Assembly: GCA_038821645.1 (NCBI GenBank)
Contig: JAWBDT010000015.1
Span: forward strand, 30,948 to 47,203
Length of the DNA stretch: 16,256 nucleotides
DNA from: Ignisphaera sp.
GTDB lineage: Archaea; Thermoproteota; Thermoprotei_A; Sulfolobales; Ignisphaeraceae
Direction of reading: 5' to 3'
Shown: in pieces, positions 3 to 6,787 of the stretch
Layout of the letters: each line of letters starts with the position of its first letter
Position numbering within the stretch: position 1 is the stretch's first letter
The notes under the pieces: model-generated
Told to the model about the DNA's origin: nothing
The model's database searches: none
Seen by the model: only the letters and a program-made list of their open reading frames with translations
Translations under genes and position numbers: made by a program

Positions 3-518
3 GAGAATCAGAATAGGCTTTGGGAAGAAGTTAGAGACTTGAGAAAAGATTTCATAATGTTTGATAAACGTTTAACTAGTCTAGAGAAACGTATTGATAG
101 ATTAGAGAAAGGTATGGGTTCTCTTGCTAAAGCTGTTGGTGTTACTCTTGATCACTATACAGCTACATTTGTTGAAGAAATCCTTAGATCTAGTGGTATA
201 CCAGAGGATAAGATCGACGTTAGAGTTGAGGTAGTTCTATCGTTTAAAGACATAGAAAGAGAAGTAGATATATTCAACAAAGATCCTCTAGTCGTAGGAG
301 AAGTAACAACATATATAGATAGCATCGAAAACGCTAGAAAAGAACTCAACAAAGTTCTAGAAGACATAAAGTTTGCAGAATCTATATTCAACAGAAGAGT
401 CTTTATGGCTATACTAGCTGTAGAGAATATACCTAAAGATGTTGCAGAATTTCTTGAAGAAGAATGTAGACGTCACGGCATTAAGCTTATATATGGAAAA
501 GAAATAGAAAAACTGTAA
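3..518 (+). CDS. 5'-truncated coiled-coil protein with C-terminal PD-(D/E)XK-like domain (crenarchaeal DUF3782/PaREP-like)
   Basis: The frame is open from the window edge (ENQNRLWEEVRDLRKDF...RLTSLEKRIDRLEK, heptad pattern), so the real start lies upstream. C-terminal EVDIF...VVGEVTT resembles a nuclease-fold D...ExK motif with K replaced by T. Confidence 0.7.
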   Translation, partial: ENQNRLWEEVRDLRKDFIMFDKRLTSLEKRIDRLEKGMGSLAKAVGVTLDHYTATFVEEILRSSGIPEDKIDVRVEVVLSFKDIEREVDIFNKDPLVVGEVTTYIDSIENARKELNKVLEDIKFAESIFNRRVFMAILAVENIPKDVAEFLEEECRRHGIKLIYGKEIEKL

Positions 519-582
519 GTAATATACAATATATCAATTAATAACAGTAACTTACCATAACAAACAAAAATATTTAAATATG

Positions 583-661
583 TGGCGGGCCCGAGGGGAT
601 TTGAACCCCTGACCACCGGCTCCGAAGGCCGGCGCTCTATTCCTGGCTGAGCTACGGGCCC
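583..661 (-). tRNA. tRNA-Arg (anticodon UCG), intronless, CCA encoded
   Basis: Reverse complement folds as a cloverleaf: GGGCCCG/CGGGCCC acceptor stem, GCTC/GAGC D-stem, CCGGC-CT-TCG-GA-GCCGG anticodon arm, AGGGG-TTCAAAT-CCCCT T-arm, ending GCCA. Confidence 0.97.
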
Positions 662-883
662 TTTAGATGTCTGTATCTGAGGTTTTTAGATCTTGATTAA
701 TATTACAACTTTGTTTATAGATTAAGGATGTTACTTGAATTTATAATTGATTAGAGCTGGCTATATAGCTTTAGGTATTTCATAGATTGGAGATGCAATA
801 GATGAAGATTATTATTATAGTTCATTTCTCGATCATTGTATCTTGTATATTCTGGTAATTGATCTGAATTTTGATTATTTGTT

Positions 884-938
884 TCAGTCTCGGGTTCTTA
901 CATCATTTGTTCAGAAGCAGCAGGCCTTACATCATCAT
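884..938 (-). ncRNA. C/D-box methylation guide sRNA (#1)
   Basis: Minus strand reads ATGATGA(C)-TGTAAGGCCTGCTGCTT-CTGA(D')-ACAA-ATGATGT(C')-AAGAACCCGAGA-CTGA(D). This is the canonical archaeal box order at about 55 nt, in intergenic DNA, with an upstream BRE/TATA. Confidence 0.88.
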
Positions 939-958
939 CTATGTTTTTTGTTGCGTGG

Positions 959-971
959 CTTAAATATTTTG
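959..971 (-). promoter_or_regulatory. BRE/TATA promoter of C/D sRNA #1
   Basis: Minus strand CAAAATATTTAAG lies about 21-33 nt upstream of the C box. Confidence 0.55.
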
Positions 972-1136
972 ACTTCTTATGTGTGTTATGTAGTTTGTTA
1001 CTAGCTATTTTTGTAATAGCATACTAGAATTAGTTGGGGTTTGTTCTGGCCTTAATAATCATAAGGTATGTAGACAATCTCTATTGTTTATAATATCTTG
1101 ATTACTTGTAGTGATGTGGTTAAACAAGTTAGATCT

Positions 1137-2039
1137 CTACTTATTGATATATTTCTCTTTAATGTAATTAAGTATTGAGAGGGTAGCTACTATGGCTTCT
1201 TCTGTTCTTATATTTTCGACTCCTTGTCTAGGTACAAAGTTAACGATATAGTTAGCATACTTATCGATATCTATACCCTCGTTTATCGCTATCTCGTCTA
1301 CATCTAGGTAAGTTCCTCCAAAGACTACTAACACATTATGTTTATTTCTAAAATCATCTACAATATAGTTCTCTAAATCGTATAACGGTTTACCCTTCTT
1401 TGATGCTACAATAATTAGATAACCATTCTTATACACAAAATCAAGCATCTCTTTCAAAGAACTTATGCTCTGCACCCTATATCCCCAGTAAATATCTAGA
1501 GACTCTCTATCAACAATCTCTACATAATAATATCTGCTATCTTCATGAACTATCTCTACAGTAATCCGCGTATTTACACTAGGGCATCTACCTCTCATTA
1601 CACCTTTCTTATCTAGACCAAGCTCAATTAAGCATTTACTTTCTGACCTACTAATAACGATACCCTCACGATATTGTGTATCAAATATCTCTGGAGGAAC
1701 ATGGTGTGGTGTTTTAAGTGGGGGTAGAAGTCCCACATACCTTAATTCTTGAGTAATTGGTACAACGATTTTCTTCATATATGGTGGAACCTCCATATAG
1801 TTGAGTACGCTTTGAATAAATCTTACATGATCAGCATCTGTATCTGGATCTCTGTATATGAATATATTTTCGACACGAAATATTGCAGCAGCTCTACCTA
1901 TAGATCCTACCTTTAGTGTCTGTTCACGTAGAGTCTTTGCATCTAATACTACTGATGCTGGTATAGCTATAGATATGAATGGTTTTGTTCTAAGAGGCCT
2001 CATGTACCTTCTATGCACATCTACTTCATCTATCTTCAT
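1137..2039 (-). CDS. SPOUT-family RNA methyltransferase (DUF171/MTH1/C9orf114-like, with OB insertion)
   Basis: 300-aa ORF with ISIAIPASVV, IGRAAAIFRVENIFIY, LNYMEVPPY, LRYVGLLPPLKTPHH, YWGY, VVFGG and NFVPRQGVENIRTEEA, all typical of this family. Confidence 0.92.
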   Translation of the reverse strand: MKIDEVDVHRRYMRPLRTKPFISIAIPASVVLDAKTLREQTLKVGSIGRAAAIFRVENIFIYRDPDTDADHVRFIQSVLNYMEVPPYMKKIVVPITQELRYVGLLPPLKTPHHVPPEIFDTQYREGIVISRSESKCLIELGLDKKGVMRGRCPSVNTRITVEIVHEDSRYYYVEIVDRESLDIYWGYRVQSISSLKEMLDFVYKNGYLIIVASKKGKPLYDLENYIVDDFRNKHNVLVVFGGTYLDVDEIAINEGIDIDKYANYIVNFVPRQGVENIRTEEAIVATLSILNYIKEKYINK

Positions 2040-2056
2040 CTATCTACAACCTGAAA

Positions 2057-2084
2057 ATCTATAAACTTGCCACAGTTTATAGAT
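2057..2084. promoter_or_regulatory. Inverted repeat forming back-to-back TATA boxes (bidirectional promoter)
   Basis: ATCTATAAACT-tgccac-AGTTTATAGAT has perfect 11-bp arms. Each arm reads TTTATAGA outward, about 20-30 nt from the SPOUT ATG (2039, minus) and the C box (2108, plus). Confidence 0.65.
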
Positions 2085-2107
2085 ATCTATTAGTGATATA
2101 GGCCTAG

Positions 2108-2166
2108 ATGATGATCCCTTCATGCACTGAATACGTAATGAAAATGATGTGTGCTGGGATACCTGA
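2108..2166 (+). ncRNA. C/D-box methylation guide sRNA (#2)
   Basis: ATGATGA(C, 2108-2114)-TCCCTTCATGCA-CTGA(D', 2127-2130)-13 nt-ATGATGT(C', 2144-2150)-GTGCTGGGATAC-CTGA(D, 2163-2166). Both guides are exactly 12 nt. Confidence 0.88.
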
Positions 2167-2206
2167 GAATCTCAATATTATCTCCATAGCATAAATACTA
2201 ACAACA

Positions 2207-2214
2207 TTAATAAA
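2207..2214 (+). promoter_or_regulatory. TATA box for the H/ACA sRNA
   Basis: TTAATAAA lies 24-31 nt upstream of the hairpin start at 2238. Confidence 0.5.
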
Positions 2215-2237
2215 GAGTTATACAAAATACAGTTAAT

Positions 2238-2314
2238 GCCCCCTGTGGCCAGACTCGTGTGAATATGATCCATAGGGTGATAATGATCACGAGATCTCCG
2301 CAGGGGGTACAAGA
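2238..2314 (+). ncRNA. Single-hairpin H/ACA pseudouridylation guide sRNA with K-turn
   Basis: 11-bp basal stem GCCCCCTGTGG(2238-2248)/CCGCAGGGGGT(2298-2308) is followed directly by ACA (2309-2311). Internal pocket CCAGA/ATCT, upper stem CTCGTG/CACGAG, and TGA...ATGAT K-turn elements are present. The top of the pocket is 15 nt from ACA. Confidence 0.82.
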
Positions 2315-2355
2315 ATCTCATGGTATAGAGAAAATCTATCAACACTCTTTATTCA

Positions 2356-2790
2356 CTAACCTATTATGGCAATAGGCTGTCCAATATCAATGAAGCTTTT
2401 CTCTTTTGCTAATATCTTCTTTATCTTACCGTTAAAGGGGCTCTTTAGCTCTATCATCATCTTCATAGATTCTATAATCGCTATAGACTGACCTTGGCTA
2501 ACGCTATCACCCTCATTAACAAGAAACTTTACGAGTCTTCCAGGTATATCGCTACGGATAACCATACCCTCCGGCTCTAAATCATTTAAAGTTTGTTGAG
2601 ATATAGATTCAGTAGCTATAATATCCGATCTTTCTATGCTTTCTCTTGCTATATTGCTAAGTAGCTCTTTAGTTACATGAATCACATATTCTCTATCCCC
2701 AATTCTAGCTACATAGGTATCCTTCTCTTTCTCATATACCTCTACCTCATATTTTTTATTATTGATAACAACAGTGAGCTTTGTTCCCAT
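2356..2790 (-). CDS. Biotin carboxyl carrier protein (biotinyl-domain subunit)
   Basis: C-terminal biotinyl domain (IRSDIPGRLVKFLVNEGDSV...IIESMKMMIELKSPFNGKI) with the MKM biotinylation motif. The N-terminal VVINNKKYEVEV segment is typical of carrier subunits. Confidence 0.93.
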   Translation of the reverse strand: MGTKLTVVINNKKYEVEVYEKEKDTYVARIGDREYVIHVTKELLSNIARESIERSDIIATESISQQTLNDLEPEGMVIRSDIPGRLVKFLVNEGDSVSQGQSIAIIESMKMMIELKSPFNGKIKKILAKEKSFIDIGQPIAIIG

Positions 2791-2980
2791 TACCAGTACC
2801 TACTCAGTGATGAATTTCCGGAGAGATATATAAGATTTAATATAGCTGTTCAAAAACCTATGCACATAGCATTATATCTTCTATTAAGGATCTTAGAAAT
2901 CTATATCCTTGGAGACCTACTACAGCTCCCTACTCCATATATCAATCATAAGAGTTGCATTAGCTAATACAGATACTCTT

Positions 2981-2995
2981 CAAAAGTCTTAAATA
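2981..2995 (+). promoter_or_regulatory. Putative BRE/TATA of the carboxyltransferase gene
   Basis: CAAAAGTCTTAAATA lies about 35-50 nt upstream of ATG 3030, with an SD-like GAAGGT before the start. Confidence 0.4.
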
Positions 2996-3029
2996 GTTGC
3001 CCTCAACCATTATCTAGAAGGTATTAGTA

Positions 3030-4613
3030 ATGAGCTTAACTCAGGAAGGTACACGTAGAGAAATTCAAGAGCTTAGAGAAATGATCAACAGAGCTAGAAT
3101 TGGTGGTGGACGTGAAGCTATAGAGAAACAACATTCTCAGGGAAAGCTTACAGCAAGAGAAAGACTTGATATACTGTTTGATGGTGGAAACTATATAGAG
3201 ATAGACATGTTTGTTATGTCTAGAGCTACAGAATTCGATATGGATAAAAAGAAGGTTCCTGGAGATGGTGTTATTACAGCATTTGGTAAAATTGATGGTA
3301 GATATGTTGTAGGTATTGCACAAGACTTTACAGTAATAGGTGGATCTGTAGGAGAAATGCATGCTTCAAAAATTGTTAAAGCTCTTCAATATGCTTTAAG
3401 TGTAGGTGTTCCAGTAGTTTTCTTAAATGATTCTGGTGGTGCTAGGATACAGGAAGGAGTAGACTCTCTTAAAGGTTATGGAGATATATTCTATATGAAT
3501 GTAGCTGCTTCTGGTGTTATTCCACAAATCGCCGTGGTCATGGGTCCTTGTGCTGGAGGTGCTGTATATTCACCTGCTTTAATGGATTTCATCATAATGG
3601 TCGAAAAAACATCATACATGTTCATTACAGGTCCTCGTGTCGTTAAAGCAGCTTTAGGTGAAGAAGTAACAGAAGAAGAGCTTGGGGGGCCTCAGATACA
3701 TATGTCTAAGAGTGGTGTAGCGCATTTTGTTGCTAGAGATGATAAGGAAGCTATATATCTCGTTAAAAAACTCTTGAGCTATCTACCATCAAACAATATG
3801 GAGATGCCGCCAAGAGTAGAGACAGGTGATGAGCCAGAGAGGATTACCCCATCTCTAGACACCATAGTGCCTGAAGATACTAAAAAACCCTACAACATGT
3901 ATGAAATAATAGAAAATGTTGTAGACAGAGGATCATTTTTTGAGATTCAAAAAGAGTTTGCTAAAAACGCTATAGTTGGTTTCGCACGAGTAAACGGCTA
4001 TGTTGTTGGAGTAGTTGCAAATAACCCAATGTACTACATGGGTGCACTCGATATAGATTCTTCAGATAAGATAGCCAGATTCGTAAGATTTTGTGATGCA
4101 TTCAATATACCGATAATCACATTCGTAGATGTACCAGGGTTTGTACCTGGTACATATCAAGAGCATAGAGGAATCATAAGGCATGGAGCTAAGATAATAT
4201 ATGCTTATAGTGAAGCCACAGTACCTAAGATAACAGTAATCGTGAGGAAAGCATATGGAGGTGCCTACATAGCGTTAGGCTCAAAACATCTTGGAGCAGA
4301 CATGGTTTTTGCATGGCCTACAGCAGAAATAGCTGTTATGGGTCCTGAAGCTGCTGCTGAAGTCATTTGGCGCAAGAAGCTTGACGCTATAACTGATCCT
4401 AGTGAAAGAGAGAAGATGTTACAAAAACTTGCAGAAGAATATAGAGAGAAACTTGCGAAACCTTATTATGCTGCTTCTAGAGGTTATGTCGATATGGTCA
4501 TAGAACCTAGCGTAACTAGACCGATGATAGTAAAAACACTAGAATTCTTGTTGTCAAAGAGGGAAATTAGGTTAAGGATTCCACCTAAGAAGCATGGATT
4601 GATGCCTCTATAG
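3030..4613 (+). CDS. Acyl-CoA carboxyltransferase subunit (PccB / methylmalonyl-CoA decarboxylase alpha family)
   Basis: 527 aa with GKLTARERL, QDFTVIGGS, DSGGARIQEG, GPCAGGAVYSPALMDF, FVDVPGF, IIRHGAK and RKAYGGAY, ending PPKKHGLMPL. Confidence 0.95.
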   Translation: MSLTQEGTRREIQELREMINRARIGGGREAIEKQHSQGKLTARERLDILFDGGNYIEIDMFVMSRATEFDMDKKKVPGDGVITAFGKIDGRYVVGIAQDFTVIGGSVGEMHASKIVKALQYALSVGVPVVFLNDSGGARIQEGVDSLKGYGDIFYMNVAASGVIPQIAVVMGPCAGGAVYSPALMDFIIMVEKTSYMFITGPRVVKAALGEEVTEEELGGPQIHMSKSGVAHFVARDDKEAIYLVKKLLSYLPSNNMEMPPRVETGDEPERITPSLDTIVPEDTKKPYNMYEIIENVVDRGSFFEIQKEFAKNAIVGFARVNGYVVGVVANNPMYYMGALDIDSSDKIARFVRFCDAFNIPIITFVDVPGFVPGTYQEHRGIIRHGAKIIYAYSEATVPKITVIVRKAYGGAYIALGSKHLGADMVFAWPTAEIAVMGPEAAAEVIWRKKLDAITDPSEREKMLQKLAEEYREKLAKPYYAASRGYVDMVIEPSVTRPMIVKTLEFLLSKREIRLRIPPKKHGLMPL

Positions 4614-4636: not shown

Positions 4637-5365
4637 ATGACCCCAAAATTTCATGAAATAGTTAGAGATGAGTATCTAGATAGAATTCTAATGTATGCTA
4701 AAGTACTGATTGAAGTAGAGAATATCATAGAGGAATTGATAGAAGATATTGATACAACTCCCCCAGGTTTAAGTTTAAAGATTGAAGGGATATATACCGA
4801 TAGAATAGATAATGTGATAAAGGTGTACATAAACTTAGGTAAGAGATGTAGCTTAGAGAAGAAAGTGGACAACATATCGATAGAGATAGAATGCAAAAAT
4901 GTGTATCCTAACTCCAATGAAGTTTATAGAACGCTAATTGTAGAGTTAATGAGGTTAGCGATAAAATCTCTTAAACCGTATATAAATAGAAGCAAAGAAT
5001 ACATGTTTATAACGATTCTAGGTAGTAAGACTAGTGGTACACTTGTTCTCGAAGGTGAAGAAAAGAACATAACAATACCATATATTCCCGGCACAATATT
5101 TATTTGTCACACTCATCCAAAAACGTATTCAGCGATTTTCTCTAAAAACGATATACTCTCTTTACTTGATATTCTATCTAACCAAGGCTTTGGATCCTGC
5201 GTTATAACACCTTCTACACAATTTACCATATACAGATACAGACCATTCGTCATAGAAGACTACTACAAGTTATTTAGGATAGCCAAAGAATACGAATACC
5301 TAGATTATGTATTATTTCATAGAATCGGCTTCTCATCCTTAGAGAGTATATACAGTACGATCTGA
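4637..5365 (+). CDS. Hypothetical protein with C-terminal JAB/MPN(JAMM)-like metal-binding motif
   Basis: 242-aa ORF starting 23 nt after the carboxyltransferase. It has an upstream KEYMFI and the motif FICHTHPKTYSAIFSKND (HxH-x8-SxxD) at 5108-5152. Confidence 0.7.
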   Translation: MTPKFHEIVRDEYLDRILMYAKVLIEVENIIEELIEDIDTTPPGLSLKIEGIYTDRIDNVIKVYINLGKRCSLEKKVDNISIEIECKNVYPNSNEVYRTLIVELMRLAIKSLKPYINRSKEYMFITILGSKTSGTLVLEGEEKNITIPYIPGTIFICHTHPKTYSAIFSKNDILSLLDILSNQGFGSCVITPSTQFTIYRYRPFVIEDYYKLFRIAKEYEYLDYVLFHRIGFSSLESIYSTI

Positions 5366-6274: not shown

Positions 6275-6787
6275 TTACATTTTCAAAACTTCATTAACTC
6301 TCTCTATAAAGGTTTGTAGAATCCTCAAGTATGTTGATATACTGTTCAAAATAGATGTACTGTTTCCGTAAATGAGATACATGGAGGGTTCAATAATAGC
6401 TGGAAGATTTTTTGTCTTTAATACCTTAACTAAGAATGTATCGTTTTTTGTTGTTTTCTCTACCAGACATACATGGTTCTCTATCTCCATATACCCTACA
6501 AATCTTTTAGATAAACCCTTTGGAACAGGTTTTATCCCTATCTTTCTCCATATATTGTCATCCGATTTGATAATCTTTATCACAAGCCTTAAATAGATAT
6601 TGAAGAACCCCTTTATACTAGATAAACATTTTATGCCTTCTTCTACATCATCGAGAAGCAAAATATGTAGGATTCTTTTTTCGCTATCTCCATACAGTTT
6701 CTTAACAGAACATTGGCTAGCTATTTTAAGTGCTTTTGCGTAGCCGAAGTCTGGGTCAATAGTTATATCGATTATGGCTTGAATCAT
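6275..6787 (-). CDS. Hypothetical protein (170 aa)
   Basis: Starts 14 nt after the valS stop on the same strand. Composition is protein-like, but no motif was recognised. Confidence 0.7.
   Translation of the reverse strand: MIQAIIDITIDPDFGYAKALKIASQCSVKKLYGDSEKRILHILLLDDVEEGIKCLSSIKGFFNIYLRLVIKIIKSDDNIWRKIGIKPVPKGLSKRFVGYMEIENHVCLVEKTTKNDTFLVKVLKTKNLPAIIEPSMYLIYGNSTSILNSISTYLRILQTFIERVNEVLKM

Follow-up and report, generated by a model that had tools for sequence, protein, structure and literature searches.

Five RNA-modification genes within 1.7 kb of an Ignisphaera genome, probably juxtaposed by lineage-specific rearrangements

Within 1.7 kb of the genome of an uncultured hot-spring archaeon, Ignisphaera sp., lie one tRNA gene, two box C/D guide RNA genes, one H/ACA guide RNA gene and one methyltransferase gene. 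We put the probability at roughly 70% that these are five genuine, separately transcribed RNA-modification genes that were brought together by lineage-specific rearrangements and form no conserved functional unit. The locus would then be a mosaic, recently assembled from ordinary, separately inherited genes. The initial annotation of the window (the whole 16,256-nucleotide stretch of DNA analysed) had recognised the same elements, and each proves to be real: the tRNA by ARAGORN and Rfam, the two C/D RNAs by a four-box scan, the H/ACA RNA by its fold and covariation, and the methyltransferase by a match to Pfam family PF02598. As had been claimed, the 1.7 kb encode three chemistries of RNA modification.

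The tRNA gene is a tRNA-Arg with anticodon TCG, placed by ARAGORN at 583-661 on the minus strand and by Rfam at 586-661 on the same strand (RF00005, 67.6 bits, E = 3.7e-13, against a gathering threshold of 29 bits). For box C/D RNAs we required boxes C (RUGAUGA), D', C', D (CUGA), occurring in that sequence and separated by roughly 12 nt, and regarded as a guide any spacer with at least 9-10 bp to rRNA or tRNA, the target lying opposite the fifth base upstream of D or D'. With at most two box mismatches allowed, this strict scan, which uses a pattern of our own and misses degenerate sRNAs, finds 44 matches in the 1.57-Mb genome versus 1, 2 and 2 in three shuffled genomes. The two genes considered here, sR-A (884-938, minus strand) and sR-B (2108-2166, plus strand), both pass with one box mismatch each, and given the genome-wide excess over shuffled sequence these matches stand far above chance. 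A third C/D-like motif at about 803-867 on the plus strand has AT-rich spacers and lacks internal boxes; it does not pass the scan.

At its gathering thresholds Rfam recovers only the tRNA and recognises none of the three guide RNAs. Among sub-threshold C/D matches, sR9 reaches 22 bits (threshold 36) over 882-939 of the minus strand, on top of sR-A, followed by snoPyro_CD (19.6 bits, threshold 45), sR11 (18.1 bits) and sR5 (14.6 bits). Because sR-A and sR-B both score below the cut-off of every Rfam C/D family, they would represent undescribed families. Judged by these profile scores, the shortfall rules out the curated families and leaves membership in the box C/D class intact; both RNAs share the box order and 12-nt spacers of the Sulfolobus and Pyrobaculum sRNAs. 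Local density, a comparison that the initial annotation had called for, is above the genome background: the two C/D genes are 1.17 kb apart, versus 0.028 such genes per kb genome-wide. Gaps below 1.5 kb account for 5 of 29 same-contig gaps (1.2 expected), four of them elsewhere in the genome.

The clearer of the two C/D RNAs with respect to targets is sR-B. Its box C (AUGAUGA, 2108-2114) is followed by the D' guide (2115-2126), box D' (CUGA, 2127-2130), box C' (UGAUGU, 2145-2150), the D guide (2151-2162) and box D (CUGA, 2163-2166), so that both guide spacers measure 12 nt. Specifically, the D' guide forms 11 of 12 pairs with positions 2133-2144 of the organism's own 23S rRNA, and the D guide forms nine Watson-Crick pairs and one G-U pair, out of 12, with positions 2160-2171. 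The target stretch is identical in all six 23S sequences of the genus, and CCCTTCATG within the D' guide is kept in 13 of 14 homologues outside the window genome, with CCTCTTCATG in the remaining one; this conservation extends to a second genus (G017). Complementarity makes sR-B a dual guide with predicted 23S sites 27 nt apart; with its help fibrillarin, Nop5 and L7Ae would 2'-O-methylate U2137 (D' guide) and C2164 (D guide) in domain IV. Dual-target sRNAs of this kind are familiar from Pyrobaculum, where about 45% of sRNAs target sites less than 100 nt apart (PMC6009581). The predicted sR-B sites also fall in the domain IV hotspot, helices 68-71, described in PMC7994747.

The second C/D RNA, sR-A, is an orphan guide. 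Box C occurs in two overlapping registers (AUGAUGA/AUGAUGU, 938-929), and D' (CUGA), C' (AUGAUGU) and D (CUGA, 887-884) follow; the first spacer spans 14-17 nt, and the 12-nt spacer between C' and D holds the D guide AAGAACCCGAGA. Its 10-nt core AGAACCCGAG is unchanged at all nine genus loci (eight homologues and the present copy), and no rRNA or tRNA site pairs with the guide at 10 or more of 12 positions. The only GC-rich perfect 10-mer complements of the D guide, at C10:49805 and C6:34510 in the genome, were rejected as targets: they map to the antisense strand at the 3' ends of two TnpB/Cas12f-like ORFs (PF07282), and neither site has an Rfam match. An action on the neighbouring tRNA-Arg was likewise discarded, as direct reading reveals 6-bp matches only. 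The sR-A gene is nevertheless physically linked to tRNA-Arg(TCG), at distances of 55 nt to 1.2 kb in seven of nine loci. Orphan status and linkage to a tRNA gene are both shared with other archaeal C/D sRNAs, from which sR-A differs in its longer first spacer and in having no recognisable target despite an invariant guide.

The H/ACA RNA (2238-2311, plus strand), 71 nt from sR-B and 198 nt upstream of the methyltransferase start, is a classic single hairpin. An 8-bp lower stem (2238-2245 with 2301-2308) and an upper stem of seven positions (2254-2260 with 2287-2293) enclose the pocket strands 2246-2253 and 2294-2300, and the apical region 2261-2286 is K-turn-like with GA motifs. Box ACA (2309-2311) directly follows the lower stem, 15 nt past the upper stem, where archaeal H/ACA RNAs are held to carry an ANA box 14-16 nt downstream of the pocket top. 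The fold energy of -40.1 kcal/mol (z = -6.4) is equalled by none of 200 shuffles. Across five homologues, in an alignment with 93% of cells paired, double-sided compensatory changes occur in 6 of 15 pairs, a count that none of 500 shuffles attained. Searching 31 related genomes with a covariance model yielded a single copy in each of 17, with box ACA or AUA in every one; UGA motifs flank the apical stem. Of the pocket strands, the 3' one (UCUC) never changes and the 5' one varies, much as the 3' guide of sR435 of Sulfolobus islandicus is reported to be the more conserved one (PMC11077068). In its lower stem, pocket, upper stem with putative K-turn, and ACA/AUA box 15 nt below the pocket, the RNA resembles Pab91/Pf9 of Pyrococcus and sR115 and sR435 of S. 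islandicus; it differs in matching no Rfam H/ACA family at E <= 10 and in the shortness of its predicted pairing (4 bp + 6-8 bp).

To rank possible targets, the guides of six genomes were each scored against their own rRNAs at aligned uridines. In this ranking, which takes the best of all sites and carries no probability, 16S U852 comes first both by worst-genome energy (-20.5 kcal/mol) and by mean energy (-23.5 kcal/mol). Guides of the G007 type pair at U852 in canonical geometry, with 4 bp, UA and 6 bp, whereas the 5' guide of the window genome does so only with one guide base bulged, its 3' arm contributing merely 4 bp. A rival site, 23S U2016, forms eight perfect pairs with this same 5' guide. 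Strict canonical searches of 16S, 23S, tRNAs with introns, GC-rich islands and the whole genome returned nothing convincing. Two further candidates were rejected: complementarity does not fit a role like that of sR115 as guide for U35 of pre-tRNA-Tyr, and at 23S U2744, the equivalent of yeast U2944, at most 4 + 4 pairs form, flanking 6 unpaired bases. Cbf5, Nop10, Gar1 and L7Ae would most likely pseudouridylate 16S U852 in helix 27, a position that is absent from the sites in Table 1 of the P. abyssi (PMC2377435) and S. islandicus (PMC11077068) reports.

The protein-coding member of the locus (1137-2039, minus strand, 300 aa) is a putative rRNA methyltransferase of the SPOUT1 family. It matches PF02598 (Methyltrn_RNA_3) with E = 1.1e-60 and 206.1 bits (cut-off 27) over profile positions 2-302 of 302, aligns with MT0001 (PDB 1K3R) at E = 7e-41, and aligns over residues 18-294 with human C9orf114/SPOUT1 at E ~1e-26 (4RG1, 1.3e-26; 8QSU). 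Like SPOUT1/Ptch/C9orf114 it shows full-length homology and, as judged by Pfam coverage, an OB-fold-containing SPOUT domain, and its RTEEA and VFGG motifs align with those of solved family members. The cofactor pocket of the human enzyme is lined by R352, T353, A356 and G293 (PMC11833075). Human N86 is replaced by Asp in the archaeal protein, which also lacks the basic N-terminal helix known from the human one. A homologue exists in Sulfolobus acidocaldarius as well. Fly and human data indicate that Ptch/SPOUT1 makes m3U at the peptidyl-transferase centre, and archaeal homologues and m3U in archaea are mentioned in PMC11641110. The organism's own 23S rRNA has a uridine run at 2753-2755. By analogy, we infer that the ORF encodes a putative m3U methyltransferase acting on a uridine of the peptidyl-transferase centre.

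Separate transcription is suggested by the arrangement of promoter-like elements, read from the sequence of an AT-rich genome. Each RNA gene has a TATA-like box of its own, and the locus contains four separate ones. For sR-A a box may lie at 960-969 (minus strand), about 25-30 nt upstream, and for the H/ACA RNA the box TTAATAAA may serve at 2207-2214 (plus strand), about 24-30 nt upstream; similar A/T boxes stand at the same distance from the H/ACA RNA in G010, G001 and G015. Between the methyltransferase start and sR-B, a perfect 9-nt inverted repeat (TCTATAAAC, 8 nt, GTTTATAGA; 2058-2083) carries TATA-like boxes facing both directions, one about 19-27 nt before the methyltransferase ATG and the other about 25 nt before sR-B, and constitutes a putative divergent promoter. 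Metatranscriptome reads over 400-3000 numbered 0, 0, 6 and 0 in four runs, too few to judge expression, and none of the six fell on a guide RNA.

Comparison among genomes speaks for the mosaic reading. The full five-element layout occurs only in the window genome (G000) and in G004, whose SPOUT proteins are 97% identical. The gene order SPOUT-[sR-B]-H/ACA-BCCP-carboxyltransferase is found only in these two genomes, G010 and G001, the last without sR-B at this place. Of the 17 genomes carrying the H/ACA gene, 4 place it next to SPOUT and 11 place it at most about 100 nt from the rtcB 3' end; sR-B adjoins SPOUT at 3 of 15 loci. The older linkage groups are thus different ones, namely tRNA-Arg with sR-A, H/ACA with rtcB, and SPOUT with another C/D sRNA. 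Synteny of the SPOUT neighbourhood, which the initial annotation had named as a check alongside sRNA density, is not conserved, and its proposal of a co-regulated rRNA-maturation or thermostabilisation locus finds no support there.

The broader idea of RNA-modification clustering fares better for one of the parts, even as the parts themselves derive from different linkage groups. Across the class, a C/D sRNA lies near 26 of 60 loci of SPOUT1-family genes versus 3 of 99 control loci, counts that come from related, non-independent genomes and so overstate the strength of the enrichment. Among the relatives, at least one strict C/D match accompanies 17 of 26 SPOUT loci, compared with 2 of 30 RtcB and 1 of 29 DUF763 loci; with one genome per new genus, the figures are 9 of 34 SPOUT loci and none of 40 windows displaced by 12 kb. 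In an old pairing, a guide of the form TTTGCC[GA]AGT adjoins SPOUT at 16 of 60 loci, in 15 genomes, versus 1 of 99 control loci, and one sRNA-SPOUT pairing persists in no fewer than eight family labels. SPOUT1-family genes of this class are therefore non-randomly close to C/D sRNA genes, which suggests some selective or mechanistic reason, such as shared promoter regions.

This proximity has to be weighed against the mosaic reading from two sides. If the cluster were a co-regulated rRNA-maturation or thermostabilisation locus, with SPOUT and the three guides co-expressed, for example from 2058-2083, then the inverted repeat with a TATA-like box facing each way, the class-wide enrichment of C/D genes beside SPOUT, and the location of both the sR-B target and the predicted SPOUT substrate in 23S rRNA would all be accommodated. 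We consider such a locus unlikely, since its layout is shared with a single 97%-identical genome, linkage ties the H/ACA gene and sR-A to other partners, the genes occupy both strands with four separate TATA-like boxes, the palindrome is not recognisable in G010, and the predicted targets are split over 23S domain IV, 23S domain V and 16S helix 27. At the other extreme, small RNA genes might simply fill intergenic gaps, making this one of several random tight clusters. The four other short C/D gaps in the genome agree with this, as does the tendency of archaeal C/D genes to be grouped in twos or threes, tRNA-linked and highly mobile (PMC7994747 and PMC6009581). Pure chance is very unlikely all the same, because C/D genes are about ten times commoner at SPOUT loci than at two control genes and shifted windows of the same genomes, and because of the pairing that spans so many family labels.

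A physical partnership between the SPOUT protein and a neighbouring guide RNP would have a precedent in yeast, where a protein of the same family became part of a snoRNP. There, as PMC13015370 describes, the homologues Upa1-Upa2 bind the H/ACA RNA snR37, and pseudouridine 2944 depends on them; this residue is close to the m3U-equivalent position. In both organisms a PF02598-family gene and an H/ACA guide occur together, and the closeness of the H/ACA gene to the SPOUT start and the recurrence of C/D genes beside SPOUT could be read in the same way. Yet the yeast link is physical, its proteins are inactive and its target is helix 90 of 23S, whereas here there is gene adjacency only, in 4 of 17 genomes, with rtcB the usual neighbour, and the predicted target is in 16S. 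The H/ACA pocket misfits U2744, and the H/ACA RNA, reduced to one minimal hairpin, lacks the additional helices to which Upa1/2 attach in yeast. The archaeal protein keeps its cofactor-pocket motifs, as would suit a stand-alone enzyme. We regard such a partnership as highly improbable.

Three hitherto unannotated guide RNA genes, with three to four sites of predicted rRNA modification, are a useful and routine gain, and the mosaic reading illustrates that apparent archaeal modification islands can arise recently from mobile small-RNA genes. As a comparative by-product, the archaeal SPOUT1-homologue gene emerges far more often beside C/D genes than controls do, in several independent configurations. 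If functional, this proximity offers a way to test how guide-dependent and stand-alone rRNA modification might be coordinated in large-subunit assembly. A more ambitious hypothesis, which we hold to be rather doubtful, is that SPOUT1-family genes are selectively kept beside C/D genes throughout the class: an ancient divergent pairing with the guide of the 23S ACUCGGCAAA site would be replenished by new guide neighbours wherever it was lost, and enzyme and guide RNPs would work jointly on early 50S precursors, by way of common promoter control or direct cooperation, as an archaeal forerunner of the yeast Upa1/2-snoRNP. Set against the mosaic reading, the frequent presence of C/D genes beside SPOUT could point to a cluster that goes beyond a mosaic.

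All five elements proposed by the initial annotation of this Ignisphaera sp. DNA, namely a tRNA, two C/D guides, an H/ACA guide and a SPOUT gene, are confirmed by ARAGORN, Rfam, a box scan, folding and PF02598, and each is an ordinary representative of a known class. The window spans C15:30948-47203 of the source genome (G000), which comprises 1.57 Mb in 31 contigs, is 97.8% complete and has 35% G+C. ARAGORN places tRNA-Arg(TCG) at 583-661 (-), with an Rfam score of 67.6 bits. The box C/D sRNAs sR-A (884-938, -) and sR-B (2108-2166, +) each have the box order C-D′-C′-D and a 12-nt D spacer, the H/ACA sRNA hairpin at 2238-2311 (+) is recognized by its fold and box, and the SPOUT ORF at 1137-2039 (-) encodes a full-length PF02598 protein (E = 1.1e-60). 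A strict four-box pattern with at most two box mismatches returns 44 candidates from the genome versus 1, 2 and 2 from three Markov-shuffled genomes. At curated thresholds, Rfam reports the tRNA alone; its C/D matches are sub-threshold, and the H/ACA RNA matches no family. The guide RNA genes are flanked at 2356-4613 by a divergent gene pair encoding a biotin carboxyl carrier protein (BCCP) and a carboxyltransferase (acyl-CoA carboxylase), and other products of the window are an HD-domain protein, a class I aminoacyl-tRNA synthetase, RtcB, DUF763 and a glycosyltransferase. Three ORFs of 170-242 aa, at 3-518 (+), 4637-5365 (+) and 6275-6787 (-), have no Pfam and no NCBIfam match.

A C/D guide directs methylation to the target nucleotide facing its fifth position, counted upstream from box D or D′. 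The D′ guide of sR-B forms 11/12 pairs with 23S 2133-2144, and its D guide forms nine Watson-Crick pairs and one G-U pair of 12 with 23S 2160-2171. By the fifth-position rule, the predicted targets are therefore 23S U2137 and C2164, which a hand alignment places at about E. coli 1967 and 1994. The target stretch is the same in 6/6 23S sequences of the genus, and the D′ guide keeps CCCTTCATG in 13 of the 14 sR-B homologues from other genomes, with CCTCTTCATG in G001. The D-guide core of sR-A, AGAACCCGAG, is invariant in 9/9 homologues and its D′ guide varies in 3/9; no site with 10/12 or more pairs was found among rRNAs and tRNAs.

The lower stem of the H/ACA RNA is 8 bp long and the upper stem spans seven positions, with an 8/7-nt pocket between them; in the apical part UGA motifs flank a small stem, and the ACA box follows 15 nt below the pocket. 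The fold scores -40.1 kcal/mol (z = -6.4). Among five BLAST-level homologues, 6/15 pairs show double-sided changes, a value reached by 0/500 shuffles (slid controls, 0-2). A covariance-model search of 31 related genomes recovered the RNA in 17, always as a single copy and all inside the family. Homologues all keep UCUC as the 3′ pocket strand, differ in the 5′ strand, and carry either ACA or AUA as the box.

Strict canonical target searches for this RNA did not succeed, and candidate sites were ranked by pairing the guide of each of six genomes with its own 16S and 23S rRNAs at aligned uridines. The top-ranked site is 16S U852 (GGGGAG-U-ACGGCCGCA), where energies average -23.5 kcal/mol over the six genomes and are -20.5 kcal/mol in the worst genome. 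Guides of the G007 type pair canonically there (4 bp, UA, 6 bp) if the top A-U of the pocket closes, and in the G000 guide one base has to bulge. As reported for S. islandicus sR435, classic H/ACA RNAs function with 8-11 bp, bulges included, and the 3′ guide counts most (PMC11077068). 23S U2016 remains a rival target: the G000 5′ guide pairs with it perfectly at eight positions, though the 3′ arm is poor.

The SPOUT protein aligns over nearly its whole length with the archaeal structure 1K3R (7e-41) and with human C9orf114/SPOUT1 (4RG1, 8QSU; about 1e-26), and its VFGG and RTEEA motifs align with those of the solved homologues. In the human enzyme, the cofactor is reported to be surrounded by G293, R352, T353 and A356 (PMC11833075). 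In flies and humans, Ptch/SPOUT1 is described as making the single m3U of the peptidyl-transferase centre; the same source places an m3U at this centre in Haloarcula and one m3U in Sulfolobus 23S rRNA, and notes archaeal Ptch/SPOUT1 homologues (PMC11641110). A uridine run at 23S 2753-2755 of G000 matches this m3U site, and we infer that the putative substrate is a peptidyl-transferase-centre uridine, as for Ptch/SPOUT1. The yeast PF02598 proteins Upa1-Upa2 are reported to be inactive structural parts of the snR37 H/ACA snoRNP (PMC13015370). The adjacency of the archaeal PF02598 and H/ACA genes is suggestive, but it occurs in only 4/17 genomes that have the H/ACA RNA, and the archaeal pocket is unfit for the equivalent 23S site.

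The further proposal of a co-regulated locus stays unproven, and synteny mostly speaks against it; the "island" is a mosaic of recent origin. Local C/D density is high, yet the genome holds four other C/D gaps below 1.5 kb (5/29 gaps observed versus 1.2 expected), and synteny splits the cluster into separate pieces. All five genes occur together only in G000 and G004, whose SPOUT proteins are 97% identical. The order SPOUT-[sR-B]-H/ACA-BCCP-carboxyltransferase is confined to G000, G004, G010 and G001, and the G001 copy of sR-B lies on a separate contig from the SPOUT-H/ACA locus. The order of BCCP and carboxyltransferase relative to SPOUT is also kept in G004, G010 and G001. In 11/17 genomes with the H/ACA gene, no more than about 100 nt separate it from the 3′ end of rtcB, mostly in convergent orientation; this arrangement may influence the tRNA ligase mRNA at its termination or in its 3′ UTR. 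The gap to the rtcB stop codon is 6-91 nt, usually with convergent genes, in G002, G003, G005-G009, G012 and G014-G016 (e.g. L236-L244). In 7/9 loci, sR-A and tRNA-Arg(TCG) are 55 nt to 1.2 kb apart, in varying orientation. Just upstream of SPOUT in G015 (L027 2476-2570), ARAGORN reports an odd 95-nt tRNA-Thr(AGT) that may be intron-containing or mis-called. Read by eye, a TATA-like box precedes every RNA gene at the distance expected, and the boxes of SPOUT and sR-B, which face opposite ways, lie in a 9-nt inverted repeat at 2058-2083; because these are direct readings in an AT-rich genome, their promoter role is putative. The predicted substrates sit in 23S domains IV and V and 16S helix 27. 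Earlier work on archaeal C/D genes already describes tight clusters, linkage between tRNA and sRNA genes, and a fluid genomic context (PMC6009581, PMC7994747).

A modest new lead is that SPOUT1-family genes recurrently lie near genes for C/D guides. One scanner was applied to SPOUT genes and controls, with gene ± 1.5 kb as the interval in relatives. At least one C/D gene was found at 17/26 SPOUT loci in the set of 25 relatives (0.29 per kb) and at 9/34 in 34 further genera (one genome each), versus 2/30 RtcB loci, 1/29 DUF763 loci and 0/40 windows shifted by 12 kb. Pooled, these are 26/60 versus 3/99 (Fisher p = 2e-10, a value that exaggerates the effect, since related genomes do not count as independent). 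The sRNAs next to SPOUT belong to at least seven different families. In the oldest pairing, the sRNA beside SPOUT is a C/D RNA whose D′ guide reads TTTGCC[GA]AGT; it is mostly upstream and divergent and occurs at 16/60 loci (15 genomes, at least eight family labels), and the motif at 1/99 control loci. The G000 copy lies elsewhere (C5:62980-63028), outside the window, and its guide has changed from G to A (TTTGCCAAGT versus TTTGCCGAGT in relatives) in step with a C-to-U change in the 23S target 1863-1872 (ACUUGGCAAA versus ACUCGG in 5/5 relatives). The two form a guide-target compensatory pair. No mention of SPOUT-C/D linkage was found in the passages of PMC6009581 and PMC7994747 that were consulted.

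Two divergent C/D sRNAs 25 nt apart at G000 C12:16412-16535, near a tRNA-Tyr gene (16637-16724), have guides complementary to the 3′ end (GGAGGTGATC) and 5′ end of 16S rRNA, and this pair neighbours the SPOUT gene in several relatives. G000 also carries two TnpB/Cas12f-like genes (PF07282) that are 85% identical, one at C10:48631-49869 (+) and a paralogue near C6:34447-34544; their G+C-rich 3′ ends, which have no Rfam match, are presumably associated guide-RNA scaffolds. In the G012 16S gene (L257, 1695 nt), the helix 27 region is directly followed by about 120 inserted nt, likely an intron, that the five other aligned 16S genes of the genus lack. A second, fragmented 16S copy is present on G012:C2.
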